DNA of 51,821 nt from Shigella phage pSf-1. The stretch is from sequence record KC710998; one strand, given 5' to 3'. Position 1 is the first letter of the stretch. Each line of letters starts with the position of its first letter. Both the position numbers and the translations under genes were made by a program. The notes beneath the pieces were generated by a model. The model saw only the letters and a list, made by a program, of their open reading frames with translations. It was not told where the DNA came from and made no database searches. Below, in pieces: positions 4,904 to 47,321 of the stretch.

Positions 4904-5309
4904 TAAAGGCGATTATCTGGAGTTTTACGAAAGAGATCCGACGGATACGCTAAAAGAGGAATCACACCAGATTGGGGCGTTTCAATGGTTAACTTATGCT
5001 CATCCTGAATTTCTTGCCTGGCATACGAAAAATGAGGGAGAAAAGGGTATCGCTACCGCAATGATGGATCAGCAAGCTGGACTCGTTAAGGGCGTAAGTG
5101 ATTTTATCATCCTGATTGGATTAAAAGGCCGTTACCCATTCGCGGCTATTGAGATGAAACGCGTCAATAAGTCTGGCAAGGGCAAGGCTTCACCAGTCAG
5201 CAAGGAGCAAAAAGCCTTCTTGCGCCGTGTGCGTGAGCTTGGCGGATTCGCTGCCGTAACATACGGATATAAGCAATTCATGATCGCGGTAGAATACATG
5301 ATGAAATAG
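4890..5309 (+). CDS. VRR-NUC domain nuclease (PD-(D/E)xK)
   Basis: KGVSDFIIL...IEMKR motif pattern typical of VRR-NUC; ATG 4890 with AAGGA RBS. Confidence 0.6.
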   Translation: MAITDKGDYLEFYERDPTDTLKEESHQIGAFQWLTYAHPEFLAWHTKNEGEKGIATAMMDQQAGLVKGVSDFIILIGLKGRYPFAAIEMKRVNKSGKGKASPVSKEQKAFLRRVRELGGFAAVTYGYKQFMIAVEYMMK

Positions 5310-5349
5310 CACTTTTTGTTAAAACAGGCGCGAAGGATTGCGCCATAAT
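5306..5349 (+). promoter_or_regulatory. conserved promoter cassette (ATAGCACTTTTTGTTAAAAC + hairpin spacer + CATAAT)
   Basis: motif begins at stop codon TAG of upstream gene; spacer GGCGCGAAGGATTGCGCC is an inverted repeat. Confidence 0.55.
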
Positions 5350-14303: not shown

Positions 14304-14346
14304 ACTATACCAGGTTTGAGAAATATTGTTTAGCAATTCGTGCTAT
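14304..14346 (-). promoter_or_regulatory. conserved promoter cassette (minus strand, variant ATAGCACGAATTGCTAAAC + TATAGT)
   Basis: same variant upstream half as cassettes at 19381 and 21896. Confidence 0.5.
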
Positions 14347-17700: not shown

Positions 17701-17745
17701 ATAGCACTTTTTGTTAAAACGCCAGGTGCAAAACCTGGCATAATA
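17701..17745 (+). promoter_or_regulatory. conserved promoter cassette
   Basis: ATAGCACTTTTTGTTAAAAC + GCCAGGTGCAAAACCTGGC hairpin + ATAATA + CATCGAAACGAG leader. Confidence 0.55.
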
Positions 17746-21308: not shown

Positions 21309-21899
21309 ATGAAACGCGACATTATCATTCTTAACGGGCCGCCAGGAGTTGGCAAAGATACGCTTGCGGCATACTTAACGGGCCATCGTTACGCAGCGGT
21401 TAAAGCGTCATTTAAACAGCCTATGTTCGATATTGCATTCTCCATGCTTGGCGTTTACCGATATGACGAGTTCATTGATCTGTATAACGACCGCGAGCAG
21501 AAAGAAAAGCCTCAAGCAATCTTGCAAGGTAAGTCGCCGCGACAATTCATGATCTGGATTAGTGAAGAAGTCATGAAGCCAGCTTTTGGCAAGCAATATT
21601 TCGGAAATCGCATGGTTGAGCAAGTACACGAGATGTACAGAGATTTGGCTGTTGTAATTAGTGATGGCGGATTCCCTGAAGAAATCAAGCCGCTCGTTAA
21701 GGCAGGCCATGAGGTGCACATTTGCCGACTGCATCGCGAAGGCTTCACGTTTGATGGCGATTCACGAAACTATATTGACCTGAGCGGATACCATCACCGA
21801 GTCAATCATTACGACTTCACAATGATTGATGGCGAGCCAGAAAAGACTGTTGAAGAGATCATCAAAACGGTGCAGTGGAAACACACAAAGATTGAATAG
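21309..21899 (+). CDS. P-loop nucleotide/polynucleotide kinase
   Basis: Walker A GPPGVGKDT near N-terminus; start ATG 21309 with GGAG RBS (track ORF from 21294). Confidence 0.55.
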   Translation: MKRDIIILNGPPGVGKDTLAAYLTGHRYAAVKASFKQPMFDIAFSMLGVYRYDEFIDLYNDREQKEKPQAILQGKSPRQFMIWISEEVMKPAFGKQYFGNRMVEQVHEMYRDLAVVISDGGFPEEIKPLVKAGHEVHICRLHREGFTFDGDSRNYIDLSGYHHRVNHYDFTMIDGEPEKTVEEIIKTVQWKHTKIE

Positions 21900-21939
21900 C
21901 ACGAATTGCTAAAAGCGGGGCGCAATGCCTCGCTATAAT
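21896..21939 (+). promoter_or_regulatory. conserved promoter cassette (variant ATAGCACGAATTGCTAAAAG + TATAAT)
   Basis: TAG of kinase stop codon inside motif. Confidence 0.55.
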
Positions 21940-23771: not shown

Positions 23772-23856
23772 AATGCTGGATTTTAATTAAAACTGAATGC
23801 CTAATACAGCGAACAGGACGCATTTTGACGAGGCATTTTTTATGTAAGGTGATTCA

Positions 23857-23985
23857 ATGGATAACTACATAAAACCGTCGCAGTGGTGCGCAAAGAAGCA
23901 AGAGGAAGCATTAGAGCGTGGCGACACTGAAACAGCAATGCACTATTTCGAAATGTACAACTTGTGGAAGGGTAGAGGTCTGTAA
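23857..23985 (+). CDS. hypothetical small protein (42 aa)
   Basis: AGGTGA RBS; MDNYIKPSQWCAKKQEEALERGDTETAMHYFEMYNLWKGRGL. Confidence 0.3.
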   Translation: MDNYIKPSQWCAKKQEEALERGDTETAMHYFEMYNLWKGRGL

Positions 23986-24215
23986 TGTTTGGAATGAGCG
24001 AGGCACAATTCAACGCTGCAAAACGCCAGGCTAAGAAGTGCGGCGAGGCAATGAAGGCTGATGTTGAAAAGCGCGGGAAGTATGTTGATGAAGTTATGAA
24101 GGGCATTATTGCCGAACATTATCAGCCAGTTGCGCCAATGCTGACAATTACCCAATTCATCTGGTTGTGTGGTTATCTTCGTGGTAGATGGGGAAGCGCA
24201 TTTGACCGCGAATGA
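23985..24215 (+). CDS. hypothetical protein
   Basis: ORF track; ATGTTTGG overlapping previous stop. Confidence 0.4.
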   Translation: MFGMSEAQFNAAKRQAKKCGEAMKADVEKRGKYVDEVMKGIIAEHYQPVAPMLTITQFIWLCGYLRGRWGSAFDRE

Positions 24216-24244
24216 TTGACAACGATTTCCTGATTGGTTAGCAT
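24216..24244 (+). promoter_or_regulatory. sigma70-type promoter (TTGACA-17 nt-TAGCAT)
   Basis: perfect -35 hexamer, 17-bp spacer, 4/6 match -10; followed by about 110 nt structured leader. Confidence 0.45.
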
Positions 24245-24361
24245 ATTCAGCGTTTACATAAGAGCGGCATTAGTGCCGAACGGGTGGCGCGGTTGCCACG
24301 AAACAACGGCGATATGCAGGTTTTTACCGTAAGACGTATTGCCTTTTTTATAGGTGTATAT

Positions 24362-24595
24362 ATGGAAAAGTACAAATTAACTTTCATGTTTAATAACATG
24401 GTGATGAATCCCTTAAATGGTTACGCTTGCAATAGCTTTTCTGTTACCGTGAATGCGGATGAAATTGAGGATGATGGTAAATTTATCCTAATAGGTGATT
24501 ACATTTATCCTATTCACAATATCAATTGCATCAAACGCGAGATCGTAAAAGATGAAATACAAGGTAAGGTTGACGATCAGGCGAATGGGGCGTAA
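24362..24595 (+). CDS. hypothetical protein
   Basis: ATG 24362 with AGGTG RBS; track ORF 24284..24595. Confidence 0.4.
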   Translation: MEKYKLTFMFNNMVMNPLNGYACNSFSVTVNADEIEDDGKFILIGDYIYPIHNINCIKREIVKDEIQGKVDDQANGA

Positions 24596-24737
24596 TTGCT
24601 CGTCATGTAGACAGAGTTTTGAATGTGAGGTTGAGGCGCGCGGAGAGCTTGAGGCGGCAGCAAGAGCAAAAGAGTTGTCCGGCGCTAATCAAGACACTCA
24701 CCAGTTTTCAATAGATCTTGTAAGGAAAATATCATGA
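24552..24737 (+). CDS. hypothetical Cys-containing protein
   Basis: ORF track; overlaps previous ORF, start uncertain. Confidence 0.3.
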   Translation: MKYKVRLTIRRMGRNCSSCRQSFECEVEARGELEAAARAKELSGANQDTHQFSIDLVRKIS

Positions 24738-24973
24738 GTTCTGTAATTATTGGTTTGGTTGCTTTAATCATTGGTGTTCTAATCGGCTTTGTCGCTGTAT
24801 CTTTCGTTGTGGCTGTTGGTGTTCGCTATAAGTCAAAAAAAGGTGAATTTGCTTTAGCGTTTTGGGATGAAGAGCAGAAAGTTTGGCAGGTTCGCGGTCA
24901 CTATTTATCAATCGGTGGCAGGATTCACAGCACTATGAAAACAAATCCAGAAAAAGTAAAATACAAGTATTGA
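24734..24973 (+). CDS. small membrane protein
   Basis: N-terminal TM helix VIIGLVALIIGVLIGFVAVSFVVAVGV; AAGGA RBS. Confidence 0.45.
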   Translation: MSSVIIGLVALIIGVLIGFVAVSFVVAVGVRYKSKKGEFALAFWDEEQKVWQVRGHYLSIGGRIHSTMKTNPEKVKYKY

Positions 24974-24980
24974 CCAACTA

Positions 24981-25002
24981 CCCGCCAAATGGCGGGTTTT
25001 TT
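24981..25002 (+). terminator. rho-independent terminator followed by TATAAT promoter-like element
   Basis: CCCGCC-aaat-GGCGGG + T6; TATAAT at about 25020. Confidence 0.55.
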
Positions 25003-31392: not shown

Positions 31393-31411
31393 GTTTAACA
31401 AAAAATGCTAT
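31393..31411 (-). promoter_or_regulatory. orphan copy of conserved motif in reverse orientation upstream of capsid gene
   Basis: GTTTAACAAAAAATGCTAT on + strand; no minus-strand gene downstream. Confidence 0.4.
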
Positions 31412-34423: not shown

Positions 34424-35086
34424 ATGCATTTACCAAATGGATCGCAAATTTTCGTTGAGAGCAATCGCGGAAGCGCTATTGATGCAACGGCAGTATCAAA
34501 CGCTAAAGATCCTGTATTCACCGTTGCATCTGGCGGAACTGCGTACAAGAAAGGTGATTATGTTATCATCACTGCGTCTTCTTGGGGTAAGCTGATTGAT
34601 CGTGTTATGCGTGTAAAGACTGACGGTGAAGAAACAAGCGTGACTCTTGAAGGCGTAGATACTACTGATCAGAACGTTTTCCCGTCTGGCGGTACTGCAT
34701 CTTTTGCCAAAATTGATGCATGGACTGAGATCCCTTGCGTTCAGGATTTGTCGCAGGACGGCGGCGAACAGCAATACTACACTTATCAGTGTTTGTCAGA
34801 CGATCAGGAACAGCAGTTACCTACCTATAAGAGCGCCGTTTCTCTTACCTACACTTTTGCGCACGAATACGATAACGCGATCTATCCGCTATTGCGTTCA
34901 GCAGATGAATCGGGCGAAGTAACCGCGCTTCGTATGTATGTACCAAAAGCAAAAGAGATGCGTTGCTGGGCTGGTGTACTTTCATTTAACGAGATCCCAC
35001 AAACGACCGTTAACGAAATGGAAACCGTTTCCCTGTCTGTATCCCTGAAAGGTCGATTCACCTTCCTACCTTCTCAAGTAGCATAA
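34424..35086 (+). CDS. major tail protein
   Basis: 220 aa; position upstream of G/T chaperone and tape measure; followed by terminator. Confidence 0.5.
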   Translation: MHLPNGSQIFVESNRGSAIDATAVSNAKDPVFTVASGGTAYKKGDYVIITASSWGKLIDRVMRVKTDGEETSVTLEGVDTTDQNVFPSGGTASFAKIDAWTEIPCVQDLSQDGGEQQYYTYQCLSDDQEQQLPTYKSAVSLTYTFAHEYDNAIYPLLRSADESGEVTALRMYVPKAKEMRCWAGVLSFNEIPQTTVNEMETVSLSVSLKGRFTFLPSQVA

Positions 35087-35092
35087 TCACAA

Positions 35093-35114
35093 GGGGCGTT
35101 GCGCCCCTTTTTTT
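35093..35114 (+). terminator. rho-independent terminator
   Basis: GGGGCG-ttg-CGCCCC + T7. Confidence 0.65.
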
Positions 35115-35152: not shown

Positions 35153-35173
35153 CTTTTAACAAAAAGTGCTATC
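35153..35173 (-). promoter_or_regulatory. orphan copy of conserved motif in reverse orientation upstream of tail chaperone gene
   Basis: CTTTTAACAAAAAGTGCTATC on + strand, 13 nt before ATG 35186. Confidence 0.4.
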
Positions 35174-41090: not shown

Positions 41091-44000
41091 ATGGCTGAAA
41101 ATATGATAACGGGCAGTAAGGGTGGATCATCAAAACCTTATGTGCCAAAAGAGATGGAAGATAACCTGATCTCAATCAACAAAATCAAAATCCTTCTTGC
41201 CGTTTCCGATGGTGAGTGCGATCCAGATTTCACGCTTCGCGATCTGTATCTCGATGATGTTCCGGTAATTGCAGACGACGGAACTGTTAACTACCAGGGT
41301 GTGAAAGCTGAATTTCGACCTGGAACGCAGACGCAAGATTACATCCAGGGGTTTACTGACACATCAAGCGAAGTGACGCTGGCGCGTGACATTACTACAT
41401 CAAATCCTTATGTAATTTCTGTAACCAACAAAACATTATCGGCTATCAGAATCAAAATGCTAATGCCAACAGGCATCAAGCAAGAGGATAACGGCGATCT
41501 TGTCGGCGTTAAGGTTACTTATGCTGTTGATATGGCTGTTGACGGAGACTCTTACAAAGAAGTATTGCTAGACACCATCGAAGGTAAAACGCGTTCCGGT
41601 TACGACAGAAGCCGAAGGATTGACCTTCCGGCATTTAATGATCGCGTATTGCTTAGGGTTAGAAGGGTTACGGCAGACAGCGCATCATCTCGCGTTACTG
41701 ATCTGATTAAGCTACAAAGTTACGCTGAGGTTATTGATGCAAAATTCCGTTATCCTCTGACTGGTCTTGTATACGTTGAATTTGACAGTGAGTTGTTCCC
41801 TAACCAGATCCCTAACATTTCAATCAAGAAGAAATGGAAGCTGATTAACGTTCCGAGTAACTACGATCCTGTTTTGAGAGAGTATCACGGTTCATGGGAT
41901 GGTACTTTCAAGAAAGCGTGGTCGAACAATCCGGCGTGGGTTCTTTATGACATTATCACAAACCAGCGATACGGATTAGATCAGCGAGAACTTGGTGTGC
42001 AGGTTGACAAATGGAGTCTTTACGAAGCGGCACAATACTGCGATCAGAAAGTGCCGGATGGAAAAGGCGGTACAGAGCCGCGTTATCTATGCGACGTTGT
42101 GATTCAAAGCCAGATTGAGGCTTATCAGCTTATTCGTGATATTTGCTCAATCTTCCGAGGCATGAGCTTTTGGAATGGCGAGAGCTTGTCAATCGTCATT
42201 GATAAGCCGCGCGATCCGTCGTACATCTTCACCAATGACAACGTTGTTGATGGTGATTTTCAGTACACAACAGCAAGCGAAAAGAGCATGTACACGCAGT
42301 GCAACGTGACGTTTGACGACGAACAAAACATGTATCAACAGGACGTAGAGGGCGTATTCGACACAGAGGCCGCATTGCGCTTTGGATACAATCCGACAAG
42401 CATAACAGCGATCGGATGTACACGCAGGAGTGAGGCTAATCGGCGCGGTCGATGGATACTAAAAACCAACTTGCGCAGCACTACGGTAAACTTTGCTACT
42501 GGACTGGAAGGCATGATCCCATCAATAGGTGATGTGATTGCTATTGCTGACAACTTTCACAGCAGCAACCTGAAGTTAAACCTGTCAGGGCGCGTGATGG
42601 AAGTTTCCGGCTTGCAGGTATTCGTTCCGTTTAAGATTGATGCTAGACCAGGTGATTTCATTATCATCAACAAGCCGGACGGTAAGCCAGTTAAGCGCAC
42701 AATCTCAAAGGTAAGCGGTGACGGAAAAACCATTGAGCTAAACATTGGGTTTGGGTTTGAAGTTAAACCTGACACGGTTTTTGCAATCGACCGCACTGAT
42801 ATTGCGTTGCAGCAATACGTTGTAACGAGTATCGGCAAAGGTGATGATGATGATGAATTTACATACTCCATCACGGCTGTTGAATATGACCCGAACAAAT
42901 ACGACGAGATTGATTACGGAGTAAACATTGACGACAGGCCAACTTCAATTGTCCAGCCTGACACAATGGCAGCACCGGAAAACGTGCAAATATCCTCATA
43001 CTCGCGAATTGTCCAGGGGGCAAGCGTTGAAACAATGGTTGTGTCGTGGGATAAAGTACCTTACGCATCGCTGTATGAAATGCAATGGCGAAAAGGTGAT
43101 GGCAACTGGCTGAATACACCACAGACCGCAAACAAAGAAATTGAGGTTGAAGGTATTTATTCAGGAAACTACCAGGTAAGGGTTAGATCTGTTTCTGCTT
43201 CCGGTTCCACATCGCCGTGGTCCAGAATTGTGACAGCTTCACTGACTGGTAAGGTAGGAGAGCCAGGTGCGCCAGTTAACTTAACTGCATCCGACAATGA
43301 GGTGTTTGGCATTCGTGTAAAATGGGGCATGCCTGAAGGGAGTGGAGACACTGCATACATTGAGCTTCATCAGTCGCCAGATGGAACAGCGGAAAACTCA
43401 AGCCTATTAACGCTGATCCCATACCCACAATATGAATACTGGCACGGGACGCTTCCGGCTGGTCATGTTGTCTGGTATAGGATTCGAAGCGTTGACAGAA
43501 TCGGCAACGTTTCCAGCTGGACTGATTTTGTTAGAGGCATGGCTTCAGATGATGTTGAGGCTGTTTTAGGCGATATTCTTGATAAGATTTTTGATACCGA
43601 AGCAGGAAAGGATCTGAAAGAGAATGCCATTGATAGCGCAAACAAAATCAAGGATCAGGCACAAAGCATCATTCAAAACGCATTGGCGAATGATACGGAC
43701 GTTAGGATTATGAGGAAGGAGAACGGAAAACGCAAAGCCGAGTTTAGACAATCAATCCAATTGATCGCAAGTGAAACTGAAGCGCGCGTTACCGCAATGA
43801 CGCAACTTAAGGCTGAATTTGACGATGAAATAACTAGCGAAGTAACGAGACTCGATCAGGCAATTGCAACAGAATCGGAAACGCGAGCAACAGCCATTGA
43901 GGAATTGAAATCACAGATTGGTGATGATATTCAGGGGCAATTAACGCGGGTTGAGGAAGCGATTGCAAACGAAACAGAGGCGCGCGTTTCGGCTGATACA

Positions 44001-44543
44001 GCATTAACAGCGAAGTTTGGAGATGTTGAATCAGCGCTTACAGAAAAACTTGATTCATGGGCTGGCGTTAATGGAGTTGGAGCACAGTACGCAATGAAAT
44101 TGGGATTGACCTACAACGGGCAGAAGTACAGCGCCGGAATGGTCATGCAGTTATCAAACAGCGCTCAAGGTTTGATTTCACAAATCCTTTTTGATGCTGG
44201 CAGATTTGCTATCATGACGAGTTCTACCGGAGGTTCGTATACATTGCCTTTTGTGGTCGAAAATAACCAAGTTTTCATCAATAGCTTGTTAGTTAAGGAT
44301 GGATCAATAAACAATGCGAAGATTGGAAACTTTATTCAGTCAAATAATTGGGATGGTAACAATGGTTGGCACATAAATAAAAATGGCGATGCGTATCTAA
44401 TGAACGCAACAGTTAGAGGTTCACTTTACGCATCAAACGGAAATTTTTCTTTTAATGGTACTAACAATACAGTTGTTATAAATAACAATGGTATAACTGT
44501 AAACCTTCCTAATGGCGGTCGCGTTGTTGTTGGTGTTTGGTAA
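41091..44543 (+). CDS. tail tip / host-specificity protein (lambda J-like)
   Basis: 1150 aa; N-terminus GSKGGSSKPYVPKEMEDNLISINKIKILLAVSDGE resembles J family start; GGTGAAAAAG RBS. Confidence 0.7.
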   Translation: MAENMITGSKGGSSKPYVPKEMEDNLISINKIKILLAVSDGECDPDFTLRDLYLDDVPVIADDGTVNYQGVKAEFRPGTQTQDYIQGFTDTSSEVTLARDITTSNPYVISVTNKTLSAIRIKMLMPTGIKQEDNGDLVGVKVTYAVDMAVDGDSYKEVLLDTIEGKTRSGYDRSRRIDLPAFNDRVLLRVRRVTADSASSRVTDLIKLQSYAEVIDAKFRYPLTGLVYVEFDSELFPNQIPNISIKKKWKLINVPSNYDPVLREYHGSWDGTFKKAWSNNPAWVLYDIITNQRYGLDQRELGVQVDKWSLYEAAQYCDQKVPDGKGGTEPRYLCDVVIQSQIEAYQLIRDICSIFRGMSFWNGESLSIVIDKPRDPSYIFTNDNVVDGDFQYTTASEKSMYTQCNVTFDDEQNMYQQDVEGVFDTEAALRFGYNPTSITAIGCTRRSEANRRGRWILKTNLRSTTVNFATGLEGMIPSIGDVIAIADNFHSSNLKLNLSGRVMEVSGLQVFVPFKIDARPGDFIIINKPDGKPVKRTISKVSGDGKTIELNIGFGFEVKPDTVFAIDRTDIALQQYVVTSIGKGDDDDEFTYSITAVEYDPNKYDEIDYGVNIDDRPTSIVQPDTMAAPENVQISSYSRIVQGASVETMVVSWDKVPYASLYEMQWRKGDGNWLNTPQTANKEIEVEGIYSGNYQVRVRSVSASGSTSPWSRIVTASLTGKVGEPGAPVNLTASDNEVFGIRVKWGMPEGSGDTAYIELHQSPDGTAENSSLLTLIPYPQYEYWHGTLPAGHVVWYRIRSVDRIGNVSSWTDFVRGMASDDVEAVLGDILDKIFDTEAGKDLKENAIDSANKIKDQAQSIIQNALANDTDVRIMRKENGKRKAEFRQSIQLIASETEARVTAMTQLKAEFDDEITSEVTRLDQAIATESETRATAIEELKSQIGDDIQGQLTRVEEAIANETEARVSADTALTAKFGDVESALTEKLDSWAGVNGVGAQYAMKLGLTYNGQKYSAGMVMQLSNSAQGLISQILFDAGRFAIMTSSTGGSYTLPFVVENNQVFINSLLVKDGSINNAKIGNFIQSNNWDGNNGWHINKNGDAYLMNATVRGSLYASNGNFSFNGTNNTVVINNNGITVNLPNGGRVVVGVW

Positions 44544-44547
44544 TGCA

Positions 44548-44572
44548 AAGGGGGCTTTTGCCCCCTTTTTTA
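44548..44572. terminator. bidirectional rho-independent terminator between convergent genes
   Basis: GGGGGC-tttt-GCCCCC flanked by A-run and T-run. Confidence 0.65.
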
Positions 44573-45535
44573 ATACATATTTGGAGTGAATGGTATAGGC
44601 ATTGAAATATTTATATTAAATGGAAATTGAGCGCCGCTCTGAGTAGAATAGTTACCTACCCTTGTTCCTGGGGTACTTCTTACGTTGCCACCACTCATGC
44701 ATACGCCCTTGTATCGAATGTTATTATATCCACCCGTAACTCTACATATTGTACCTGTTCTCAGTATTGGGAAAAATCCACCGCACCACTGCCAACCATC
44801 ATTTATCGCCATAGTCCCGCCAAGAACAAAAGGACGTCTAACGCTTGAGAAAACTATCTGACCAGCAGGATTGCTCATAGTGATTCCTGGTCCTGGAGGT
44901 GGTGGAGTGTTATTAAATATTACGAGTTGCACGTATACGCTCGCGCCAACGTCATCAATTCCGTTATAGTTTGCATCTCTGCACCATATCGTGTTGCCGT
45001 CAGATTCCAGAGTTACGTTTGGGTTATCCCACATTCCGAAAGGAACACCCTGGACTGGCAACTGAGCCTGACCGTTAACCTGGATTCCTCCAACAAATGC
45101 CGCGCTCATTAACCTGGCGTTGTTCGGTATTGATGCAAAGTCCGTTGAGTCGCTAACAAGTATCCCCTGATTACCCGCCTGAGCGGGGAGTATTTCGTAG
45201 CAGTTGCCGTAAAACCTCATTCTCCTTCCCCTGCTCCCGTTAAAATTACCTACCGTTATTCGACCAGTTGCGTCATTTACCTTTTGAAAGCTGGTTAAAT
45301 AATAAACTTCCGGTATGTAATCCATATCGTCGATATAAACGGCTTGAGATGGAAGGCAAAAAGCCGTTGATCCTGGACTCATTTGCAAACCAAAATCAAA
45401 TACTGATCCAGATGAATCAACTCCGTCGGCTTGTATAGGTCCACACCATGATGGGGCGCGAAGTCCCGATGTTATCTCCATTGCCGGACGACCGTCATTT
45501 AGGTTTATATATATTCCCTGCCCCATAATTACCAC
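44570..45535 (-). CDS. putative receptor-binding protein (inference from context)
   Basis: 321 aa, Gly/Asn/Ser-rich; co-oriented with and directly downstream of lipoprotein gene; convergent with J. Confidence 0.35.
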   Translation of the reverse strand: MVIMGQGIYINLNDGRPAMEITSGLRAPSWCGPIQADGVDSSGSVFDFGLQMSPGSTAFCLPSQAVYIDDMDYIPEVYYLTSFQKVNDATGRITVGNFNGSRGRRMRFYGNCYEILPAQAGNQGILVSDSTDFASIPNNARLMSAAFVGGIQVNGQAQLPVQGVPFGMWDNPNVTLESDGNTIWCRDANYNGIDDVGASVYVQLVIFNNTPPPPGPGITMSNPAGQIVFSSVRRPFVLGGTMAINDGWQWCGGFFPILRTGTICRVTGGYNNIRYKGVCMSGGNVRSTPGTRVGNYSTQSGAQFPFNINISMPIPFTPNMY

Positions 45536-45759
45536 TCTTTAGTTTTGATTGATACCTTGCCGCTAAAGTTGCCCTGGACGTCATCGGATGACAGACCTTT
45601 GAATCGCATATCTATTTCGCCAGCCGGAATCTTCTGACCATCAACTAATCGCACCATGCAAGATCCGTAAGTGTAAGTAACACAGTCGCCATTTTTAAGA
45701 TTCTGAGCACAACCAGTCAGGGCAACGGCTGCAATCAAAACGGCGATTAACTCTTTCAT
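45529..45759 (-). CDS. small lipoprotein, Llp/Cor-like superinfection-exclusion candidate
   Basis: signal peptide + lipobox LTGC at residues 14-17; 76 aa; AAGGAG RBS. Confidence 0.5.
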   Translation of the reverse strand: MKELIAVLIAAVALTGCAQNLKNGDCVTYTYGSCMVRLVDGQKIPAGEIDMRFKGLSSDDVQGNFSGKVSIKTKEW

Positions 45760-45790
45760 CTTGGTATCTCCTTCGTTGTTGTTGGTTGCA

Positions 45791-45834
45791 ACTATACACG
45801 ATCTTGCGGTTGGCGTTTAGCAAAAAGTGCTATT
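45791..45834 (-). promoter_or_regulatory. conserved promoter cassette (minus strand, variant ATAGCACTTTTTGCTAAAC + TATAGT)
   Basis: motif + 18 nt + TATAGT + CAACAACAACGAAGGAG leader. Confidence 0.55.
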
Positions 45835-46259
45835 CTTGTTCTTTTTGTTATCCGGTGTTCTCAAATCTGCGGAGTCTTAAATTTAGCTCAAAAAGCGAAC
45901 AACAATAGAGCGCAATACATACAGATAATATATATACATACATATAAATCAATAAGTTAGTAGTATATATATTCATGTTTGTTCTTTATTGTTATCTATG
46001 TTTTGTGTGATTTTGTGTGTCTGGTGATTTTTCTGTGATTGTGCATGTGTCATTGGTTATGTGTGTCTATATATCTATATCCGGCGCAAATTGAGGAACA
46101 AGAGAACAAAAGATAACAAGGATATTTATCAATCACTTACATGTAAGTTTTGTTATCTAAGTTGGCTATAACGTTGTTAGAACAGAAAAAACAAAATAAC
46201 TATTGACTAAACGCATCAAATAGCTACAATGCAGACATACCAACCAATGAGGGCAAATC
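45835..46259. repeat. noncoding AT-rich island with TGTTATC/GATAACA iterons, TATA-repeats and GTGATT/GTGTG repeats
   Basis: copies of TGTTATC at about 45845, 45990, 46151; GATAACA at 46113; TATATATACATACATATAAAT tract; no ORF of 60 aa or more. Confidence 0.6.
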
Positions 46260-47321
46260 ATGAATAAGTTTATGGCGTACACCAGCGAAGAAATGAGCAA
46301 TGAGCTTTATCACGATCCAGAAGCGTGGACGGCTGATTATGTTAGTGGATCAAGCCTTGCAGAGATTTACAGCACATGCCCGGCGGCGTGGAAGTTCAAG
46401 CCGCGCGACGACAAGAGCAAGGCGCTAGTTTTCGGTACGCAGTCGCATACCAACTTTGAAAGCAAGGAGCTTTTCGAAAAAACATATCGCCGTGCGCCAG
46501 CGCCAGAAGACTTTAAGGATCTGATAACCAGCCAAACGGCGCTTGCTGCAAAGCTAAAATCATTTGGCCTGAAAGGTACAACAGGAAAGACTTACCCTGA
46601 ACTTATAAAAATGTTGGTTGACTGCGGAGAAGACCTTAACGTCATGTGGTTAATCGACATGATCGCAGAAAGTCAGGCCAGGGCTGACGGCGTGCAGCTA
46701 ATCGAATCTAAAGATTACGATGCGTGCGTGGCAATGCGCCAGGTTCTGGAATCAATACCTGAACATAACGCATGTATGAATAGCAAGACAGCACAACGTG
46801 AATTATCGTTGTTCGGTGAAATCAACGGCGTAAAAGTCAAAGTGCGATGCGATCACGTTGACGTAACGAAGAACGTAACAGCAACTTTGATTGATGGTTA
46901 CGATGAAAAAGGACAGCCGATTTGCCGCGATATTATTTATCCAGAGGCGATTGTGATCACTGACTACAAAACAACGATGAGCGCTAATCCGGCTGAGTTT
47001 ATGCGCCTGGCCTACAATCACGGCTATTATCTGAAAATGGCGTTGCAATGTGATTTATTCAGGAAAGCGTATCCAGAAGAAAAGCGACCTATAGTTGTGC
47101 GCCTGTTAGCGCAAGAGAAGAAAGAGCCTTACTTGCCGTTAGCTTTCCGCATGAACAGCGAGCAATTGAAGATCGGGCGCATTCAGTACATGAGCGTAAT
47201 TAACCAGTTTGCCATGTGCCAGCAACATGACGTTTGGCCTTCGTATTCAAACGGTGAGCCGGAGGTTTGCCTTGATACTCCTGATTGGGTGCGACGCCAG
47301 TTTAAGCAATATCTTATTTAA
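46260..47321 (+). CDS. PD-(D/E)xK family exonuclease (recombination exonuclease candidate)
   Basis: ITDYKTT motif (RecB/Cas4-like nuclease motif); upstream of Erf and SSB. Confidence 0.5.
   Translation: MNKFMAYTSEEMSNELYHDPEAWTADYVSGSSLAEIYSTCPAAWKFKPRDDKSKALVFGTQSHTNFESKELFEKTYRRAPAPEDFKDLITSQTALAAKLKSFGLKGTTGKTYPELIKMLVDCGEDLNVMWLIDMIAESQARADGVQLIESKDYDACVAMRQVLESIPEHNACMNSKTAQRELSLFGEINGVKVKVRCDHVDVTKNVTATLIDGYDEKGQPICRDIIYPEAIVITDYKTTMSANPAEFMRLAYNHGYYLKMALQCDLFRKAYPEEKRPIVVRLLAQEKKEPYLPLAFRMNSEQLKIGRIQYMSVINQFAMCQQHDVWPSYSNGEPEVCLDTPDWVRRQFKQYLI

Follow-up and report, generated by a model that had tools for sequence, protein, structure and literature searches.

A predicted LptD-type receptor specificity cassette beside the tail-tip gene of Shigella phage pSf-1

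Genes for receptor-binding proteins (RBPs) are located 3' of gpJ together with genes for cognate exclusion proteins, in an arrangement published earlier, and the alleles at these loci match the terminal receptor (PMC8594841). Four unrelated RBP families have been confirmed, for FhuA, BtuB, LptD and YncD, and RBP families map one-to-one to receptors at >30% identity (bioRxiv 10.64898/2026.04.02.716166). The C-terminal tip of GpJ is also associated with specificity (bioRxiv 10.64898/2026.04.02.716166).

The system directed at LptD has been described in structural terms. The RBP of phage Oekolampad, which is LptD-dependent by experiment, was solved inserted in laterally open LptDE (Dunbar et al., PMC12685063). 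A solved structure also shows Rtp45 of phage Rtp on the periplasmic face of LptDE, and Rtp45 works as an exclusion factor; its hairpin displaces the LptD loop EL4 by up to 20 Å and thereby sterically blocks RBP binding (PMC12685063). Resistance maps to EL4, EL5 and EL11 (PMC12685063). The need of phage vB_EcoS_OzMSK (OzMSK) for LptD was shown with LptD loop deletions (Black et al., PMC13035648), and the Tunavirus SH6 was given as predicted LptD-dependent (PMC13035648).

Phage pSf-1 is a T1-like siphophage of the genus Hanrivervirus (Drexlerviridae). In the window (the whole stretch of pSf-1 DNA analysed, 51,821 nt), two minus-strand open reading frames were found between a J-like tail-tip gene (41091-44543, plus strand) and an exonuclease VIII gene (46260-47321, plus strand). 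The sequence-only reading had placed such a pair at 44570-45759, which proved correct, and had proposed that it encodes an RBP and a superinfection-exclusion lipoprotein. Both homology and fold supported this proposal (9rpt_C for the RBP; PF24052 and 9rps_D for the lipoprotein), and we regard it as close to certain. We interpreted the whole locus, with a high degree of confidence, as an LptD-type terminal-receptor specificity cassette, composed of an LptD-binding RBP and an LptD-blocking lipoprotein. The features are collected in Table 1. Gene structure, family membership, fold and cassette boundaries were established by this analysis.

Table 1. Features of the pSf-1 locus between the tail-tip gene and the promoter-like element (positions in the window)
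Feature	Position	Strand	Remarks
J-like tail-tip gene, last 64 codons	44350..44543	+	Receptor-type-specific tip
Hairpin terminator in the gap where the J and RBP genes converge	44547..44568	.	9-bp GC-rich stem, 4-nt loop
RBP gene, 318 aa, DUF6453	44570..45526	-	Predicted LptD binder; identical to AGI61466.1
Lipoprotein precursor gene, 76 aa, Rtp45/SE_Oeko family	45529..45759	-	Identical to AGI61467.1
Signal-peptide coding part of lipoprotein gene	45707..45759	-	Phage backbone; right-hand homology arm of the exchangeable cassette
Shine-Dalgarno sequence AAGGAG of lipoprotein gene	45768..45773	-	8 nt 5' of ATG 45759; read off the sequence
Promoter-like cassette	45791..45834	-	18-mer ATAGCACTTTTTGCTAAA (45833-45816) and -10-like TATAGT (45796-45791)

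The longest reading of the second frame, from GTG 45535 to 44570, was 321 aa, the length claimed before. The frame itself was thus right, but not its start. The ATG at 45526, which gives 318 aa, corresponds to residue 1 of the solved homologue and to the start in the public annotation, and the GTG was rejected in its favor. The stop codon TAA of the lipoprotein gene and the ATG of the RBP gene were spaced by 2 nt, which is compatible with translational coupling of the two genes. Comparison with pSf-2 gave a pS of 0.44 and a pN of 0.013 for the RBP gene (pN/pS 0.03, strong purifying selection). The pN/pS of the lipoprotein gene was 0.32, with 7 of the 13 substitutions in the signal peptide. Judged by these ratios, both genes are expressed and constrained.

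The 318-aa protein is a full-length member of the LptD-binding RBP family of small siphophages. It matched the Pfam model PF20051/DUF6453, still labeled 'unknown function', with 426 bits (cut-off 25; E=1e-127) over residues 7-298, covering profile positions 1-291 of 291. Rtp44 scored 379.5 bits on the same model. A PDB sequence search aligned the protein end to end (residues 1-318 against 1-321, E=2.4e-66) with 9rpt_C, the Oekolampad 'tail fiber protein' in the cryo-EM structure of Shigella flexneri LptDE.

At full coverage, the identity was 97% to pSf-2 gp21, 69% to OzMSK_038, 42% to the Oekolampad RBP and 41% to Rtp44. RBP families have been delimited by >30% identity over >99% coverage (bioRxiv 10.64898/2026.04.02.716166), and the pSf-1 protein lay above both limits against OzMSK_038, the Oekolampad RBP and Rtp44. 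At the only interface residue compared, Gln299 of the Oekolampad RBP, the pSf-1 protein also has a Gln. The protein had been called Gly/Asn-rich; these were indeed its two commonest residues (12.9% and 8.2%), but the enrichment was mild.

Structure prediction, which had been suggested as a check, was in agreement. The AlphaFold2 model built with 41 homologues was all-beta (mean pLDDT 85, pTM 0.83) and had the all-beta double-sandwich fold of the solved Oekolampad RBP. Foldseek against the PDB returned 9rpt_C as the sole significant match (E=7.7e-21, probability 1.00, target-normalized TM 0.90); the runner-up had an E of 0.33. Confidence was low in residues 1-20 and 111-140 (pLDDT 57-63). These stretches largely overlapped residues 1-25 and 111-139, which held 11 of the 26 invariant RBP columns. 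This would fit a conserved base that becomes ordered only once on the tail. The solved Oekolampad RBP is likewise poorly ordered in its tail-proximal part (PMC12685063).

The 76-aa product begins MKELIAVLIAAVALTGC and has the signal peptide and the LTGC lipobox attributed to it in the sequence-only reading. The signal peptide spans residues 1-16 and the lipobox L14-T15-G16-C17, with a predicted lipidated Cys17 followed by the rest of a 60-aa mature part that starts at this residue. The Sec/SPII signal, MKELIAVLIAAVA-LTGC-A, has a residue other than Asp at +2, and LPAM_1 matched residues 1-18.

The product scored 82.1 bits on PF24052 (cut-off 27), a model on which Rtp45 scored 128 bits and OzMSK_039 129.8 bits. 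It also matched phrog_4281 (E=4e-34; Rtp45, 1e-32) and PDB 9rps_D, which is Rtp45 on LptDE (E=1.3e-7). Its Cys26 and Cys34 aligned with the disulfide Cys30-Cys38 of Rtp45 (the disulfide itself is predicted). In an alignment of six such lipoproteins, the invariant positions were the lipobox Cys, both disulfide Cys, P45-A46-G47, D50, R52 and the C-terminal E-W, and the hairpin motif PAGE(I/V)D.R(F/Y) was conserved. Identity was 83% to the pSf-2 protein, 67% to Oekolampad bas18_0026 and 34% to Rtp45. The pSf-1 lipoprotein belongs to the Oekolampad-like subgroup and not to that of Rtp45 and OzMSK. These matches predict a superinfection-exclusion lipoprotein of the Rtp45 family. AlphaFold is reported to have modeled Rtp45 and its complex with LptDE wrongly, and its models of such lipoproteins are unreliable (PMC12685063).

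To define the limits of the locus, pSf-1 was aligned with its relatives. The backbone DNA was 94-97% identical to that of slyngel, vojen, egaa, JakobBernoulli (Bas07) and ESh4. Against Bas07, slyngel and vojen, which are FhuA-type Hanrivervirus with about 95% nucleotide identity, homology ended at 44349 and restarted at 45707, at the same bases in 3/3 comparisons. The restart is at codon 18 of the lipoprotein gene, one residue past the lipobox Cys17. The replaced segment of 1,357 bp takes in the final 64 codons of J, the whole RBP gene and all of the lipoprotein gene from codon 18 onward. The signal peptide, the Shine-Dalgarno sequence and the promoter-like cassette lie outside it and are part of the backbone.

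In the same slot, Bas07, slyngel and vojen have two genes on the plus strand, of phrog_557 and phrog_425, and a Cor gene on the minus strand. This is the content of the FhuA/Cor cassette described for T1-like phages, and Bas07 uses FhuA.

The exchanged J tip, ending in ...VRGSLYASNGNFSFNGTNNTVVINNNGITVNLPNGGRVVVGVW, was common to LptD-type phages of five genera and different in the FhuA-type siblings. Six LptD-type phages, from five genera, had its pattern, VRG.LYA..G.F.F.G..TV.I...G..V.LP.GGRV.VG, and the FhuA-type siblings lacked it. The J tip thus co-segregated with the RBP type, and it is presumably where the separate RBP docks.

Inside the cassette, the nearest DNA relatives were Tunavirus; pSf-2 was 83-94% identical in nucleotides inside, as opposed to about 60% outside. 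With ESh4, of the same genus as pSf-1, the identity of about 95% fell to 73-87% over the RBP and lipoprotein genes. Since the Tunavirus relatives have a backbone of a different genus, the cassette is mosaic in pSf-1. The layout, with J forward and the RBP and lipoprotein genes reversed, was also that of pSf-2, ESh4, Rtp, OzMSK and Oekolampad.

Two further readings are rather unlikely. In the first, the cassette is a plug-in unit with fixed homology arms; the J shaft on one side and, on the other, the conserved signal peptide together with its promoter would be the recombination arms, and these would move the J tip, the RBP and the mature lipoprotein as a single unit between genera. A plug-in layout, if true, could be put to direct use in receptor re-targeting. 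In the second, the RBP clade of Tunavirus and pSf-1 contacts LptD in another way than Oekolampad does, or has a different receptor.

The J stop (44543) and the convergent stop (44570) leave a gap of 26 nt, which was occupied by a hairpin with a free energy of -17.5 kcal/mol on the plus strand and -17.9 on the minus strand (z-scores -2.4 and -3.2). A bidirectional terminator shared with J had been described here. The hairpin is in place and is followed by T6 on the plus strand, but its tail on the minus strand is only TTTG, and because of this it is the weaker terminator in that direction. We infer that minus-strand transcription would end at this hairpin, and that the lipoprotein and RBP genes would be co-transcribed.

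The cassette at 45791-45834, to which the sequence-only reading had assigned the transcription of the pair, turned out to be a real repeated element. Its 18-mer, ATAGCAYTTTTTGYTAAA, occurred 15 times in the window versus 0 expected, and every copy was located about 20 nt 5' of a -10-like hexamer and 45-60 nt 5' of a Shine-Dalgarno sequence and ATG. The same motif was found at the same position 5' of the lipoprotein gene in Bas07, slyngel, vojen and ESh4. A simple sigma-70 consensus scan called no promoter at this element, because the spacing from TTGCTA to TATAGT is 21 nt, and a sigma-70 consensus promoter was set aside. In view of this lack of a call, we infer the promoter function from the over-representation of the repeat and its constant layout, which make the element a probable phage-specific promoter or operator.

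Which receptor the cassette serves was considered next to these results. FhuA, BtuB and LptD had been named as candidates; the family and fold evidence supported LptD and not FhuA or BtuB. The receptor of pSf-1 is very probably LptD, as predicted from homologues that are 41-69% identical. The locus of SH6 matched that of pSf-1 at 86.5% nucleotide identity, and that of pSf-2 did likewise.

One alternative keeps the two families and changes the receptor. In the DUF6453 clade of Tunavirus and pSf-1, the tip loops might have turned to a different outer-membrane protein of Shigella or E. coli, and the lipoprotein might have co-evolved so that it blocks this protein. Members whose LptD binding was solved or verified indirectly share only 41-42% identity with the clade, and changes of specificity are known to have a hot spot at this locus (PMC8594841). 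On the other hand, all tested family members use LptD, and the published families correspond one-to-one with receptors above 30% identity. The OzMSK protein, at 69% identity, comes from an LptD-dependent phage. The lipoprotein retains the Rtp45/SE_Oeko core that fits the periplasmic face of LptD, and the J tip is of the LptD type. We consider such a shift improbable.

A second alternative is that the pair is homologous to pb5/Llp of T5 or to Cor of T1 and phi80, and is aimed at a TonB-dependent transporter (FhuA or BtuB). The gene logic is the same, an RBP adjoining a small lipoprotein, and phrog_1119, the profile of Cor (T1, phi80 and N15), did match the pSf-1 lipoprotein weakly (E=5e-5). However, the match was confined to residues 1-32, the signal peptide. 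The control, Bas07_0026, a true Cor outside PF24052, matched the same profile over residues 1-74 (E=7.6e-28). The Cor profile therefore separates a full-length Cor from a match to the signal peptide only, and the pSf-1 lipoprotein is not a Cor. The signal peptide of Bas07 Cor, MKKLIAVLIATVTLTGCA, was almost the same as that of the pSf-1 lipoprotein, and the mature parts of the two gave no alignment.

The papers on these systems cite 8A8C and 8A60 as solved entries for pb5 and Llp. No pb5 or Llp chain appeared in the fold search or when PDB sequences were searched with E up to 1 and 10. The FhuA-type siblings, moreover, hold a completely different three-gene cassette in this slot. Homology of the lipoprotein to Cor or Llp was rejected on these grounds (PHROGs, Pfam, PDB and the Bas07 Cor control), and this alternative as a whole is extremely unlikely. 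The likeness to T5 and T1-like pairs drawn in the sequence-only reading holds for function, which is analogous, but not for ancestry.

A third alternative follows the RefSeq name of its relatives ('membrane protein') and the category of its PHROG (phrog_1265, moron/host takeover), and takes the 318-aa protein for a host-directed 'membrane protein' or moron outside the virion. This has hardly any probability left, as the protein lacks a signal peptide and any hydrophobic segment (highest Kyte-Doolittle mean over 19 residues, 0.92), its all-beta fold is that of a solved soluble RBP, and a homologue binds LptDE from the cell exterior. The label 'membrane protein' is misleading because of this lack of a hydrophobic segment.

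For the LptD-type cassette, LptDE binding and the exclusion mechanism were demonstrated in homologues. One mRNA with two coupled genes would arise by leftward transcription, for which the repeated promoter cassette of the backbone is the probable start. The signal peptide of the lipoprotein would be cleaved after LTG, and Cys17 then lipidated. Lipoproteins with Ala at +2 are sent to the outer membrane by the established Lol rule. Because the +2 residue here is Ala, the Lol pathway should place the pSf-1 lipoprotein in the inner leaflet of the outer membrane.

There, by homology with Rtp45, the 60-residue mature part would bind the LptD barrel from the periplasm and push its beta-hairpin up the lumen, where the hairpin would force extracellular loop 4 out of place. 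Virions of pSf-1 and of other LptD-targeting phages would then find no binding site on the infected cell or its debris. In the virion, the RBP would be attached by non-covalent docking of its conserved base on the C-terminal tip of J, which is type-specific. The tip loops of the RBP would enter the LptDE translocon in its laterally open state, which would result in irreversible adsorption. The need of pSf-1 for LptD, the timing of expression and the docking of the RBP on J are presumed in this scheme.

The type of system, both protein families and their structures on LptDE are already published, and so is the prediction for near-identical alleles; no new mechanism was revealed by the pSf-1 locus. 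The additions made here are small, namely the receptor prediction for pSf-1 and the exact breakpoints of the cassette. Neither is documented in the searchable literature, in which we found no receptor assignment for pSf-1; a single paper includes pSf-1 in its list but names no receptor. Functional names can now be proposed for two genes whose public names are 'membrane protein' (AGI61466.1) and 'hypothetical protein' (the lipoprotein). The predicted terminal receptor is the essential LptD channel. This prediction would be useful in the design of phage cocktails, in anticipating resistance (LptD EL4 and EL11 mutations) and in the annotation of DUF6453.

Among the known systems, Oekolampad (Bas18; PDB 9rpt, 9rpw and 9rqi; PMC12685063) resembled pSf-1 in the layout of the locus after J, in the RBP fold and in a related J tip. 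Its lipoprotein bas18_0026 and RBP bas18_0025 were 67% and 42% identical to the pSf-1 counterparts. It differs in genus (Dhillonvirus versus Hanrivervirus), and the RBP sequence is otherwise diverged. Rtp44 and Rtp45 of phage Rtp (PDB 9rps) belong to the same two Pfam and PHROG families and share the gene order and J tip with pSf-1, but the identity is only 41% for the RBP and 34% for the lipoprotein, and the lipoprotein subgroups differ.

OzMSK_038, at the same position, is the closest RBP homologue (69%) with an experimental receptor assignment (PMC13035648). Its lipoprotein partner, on the other hand, is of the Rtp45 type and about 30% identical to that of pSf-1. A similar RBP is thus combined with another lipoprotein subtype, and this indicated that RBP and lipoprotein subtypes have been reassorted between phages.

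The pairs pb5/Llp of T5 and Cor of T1 follow the same strategy, in which a separate tail-tip RBP is accompanied by a small lipoprotein of the outer membrane, and the lipoprotein inactivates the receptor from the periplasmic side. They differ from the pSf-1 pair in their receptor, FhuA, and share no homology with it in sequence or fold. The mode of action also differs between the known lipoproteins: it is steric displacement of LptD loops for Rtp45, and long-range allostery on FhuA for Llp (PMC12685063).

The Tunavirus phages pSf-2 (gp21/gp20), SH6, Shfl1 and the Sfin phages, whose backbone is of a different genus, are also among the closest known systems, and pSf-2 is the nearest relative of the cassette in DNA. 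In the Hanrivervirus siblings of pSf-1, the slot is taken by the Cor cassette, with the promoter and signal peptide that the pSf-1 lipoprotein also has.

The 18-mer ATAGCAYTTTTTGYTAAA occurred 15 times in the window, where none would be expected by chance, and its sites spanned positions 2783-45833. In the copies inspected, a -10-like hexamer lay about 20 nt downstream of the 18-mer, and a Shine-Dalgarno sequence with an ATG followed 45-60 nt downstream. The distance from the TTGYTA element of the motif to the -10 was 21-22 nt. This exceeds the spacing of a normal -35 box, and the motif could therefore represent a phage-specific promoter class or the site of a regulator. The motif ahead of the gene for the exclusion lipoprotein (the 76-aa Rtp45/SE_Oeko-family precursor) was also found in four other Hanriverviruses, irrespective of which receptor-type-specific cassette of the receptor-binding protein (RBP) they carried.

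A variant of the motif, TAGCACGAATTGCTA, formed a perfect inverted repeat. At both of its sites a -10-like hexamer and then a gene start were found downstream. These sites could be operators for a phage regulator.

Two copies of the motif pointed leftward within the plus-strand structural block. The one at 35155-35172 was situated between a 220-aa ORF and the following gene, 13 nt ahead of the ATG of the latter (35186), and faced a terminator hairpin at approximately 35084-35106. This copy could be the source of a short antisense transcript, or an operator for the plus-strand gene.

Coordinates of motif copies and promoter-like or low-complexity elements
Feature	Position	Strand	Remark
18-mer ATAGCAYTTTTTGYTAAA, example site	5306-5323	+	
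18-mer ATAGCAYTTTTTGYTAAA, example site	17701-17718	+	
18-mer ATAGCAYTTTTTGYTAAA, example site	45816-45833	-	
18-mer motif, leftward copy	35155-35172	-	within plus-strand structural block
18-mer motif, leftward copy	31394-31411	-	within plus-strand structural block
Inverted-repeat variant TAGCACGAATTGCTA	14331-14345	identical on both strands	
Inverted-repeat variant TAGCACGAATTGCTA	21897-21911	identical on both strands	
Promoter-like site TTGACT-16-TACAAT	46203-46230	+	within non-coding 45835-46259
Low-complexity TATG/TATA stretch	around 45900-45950		within non-coding 45835-46259

The stretch of about 425 bp (45835-46259) that separates the promoter-like element ahead of the exclusion-lipoprotein gene from the exonuclease VIII gene was AT-rich and non-coding. 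Its conservation in sibling phages was approximately 93%.

In a search of the phage collection, about 20 records labeled 'Campylobacter phage' (host Campylobacter jejuni) matched the T1-like enterobacterial backbone and the RBP locus. Such entries probably carry a wrongly assigned host or stem from a contaminating phage.

Comparison with three sibling phages of the FhuA/Cor type (Bas07, slyngel and vojen) placed the exchange breakpoints at 44349 and 45707, identical to the base against all three. The first fell 64 codons short of the end of the tail-tip gene J, and the second one codon past the lipobox cysteine of the exclusion lipoprotein. In Hanrivervirus, a single signal peptide and promoter are thus common to the Cor-type and Rtp45-type lipoproteins.

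The RBP and lipoprotein genes did not show the same degree of relatedness to other phages. In OzMSK (23794-25001, compared with 44570-45759 of the window), the RBP was 69% identical, but the lipoprotein was of the Rtp45 type and about 30% identical. With Oekolampad, on the other hand, the lipoprotein was 67% identical and the RBP only 42%. The RBP and lipoprotein subtypes are therefore reassorted between phages, and the gene pair is not always passed on as one.
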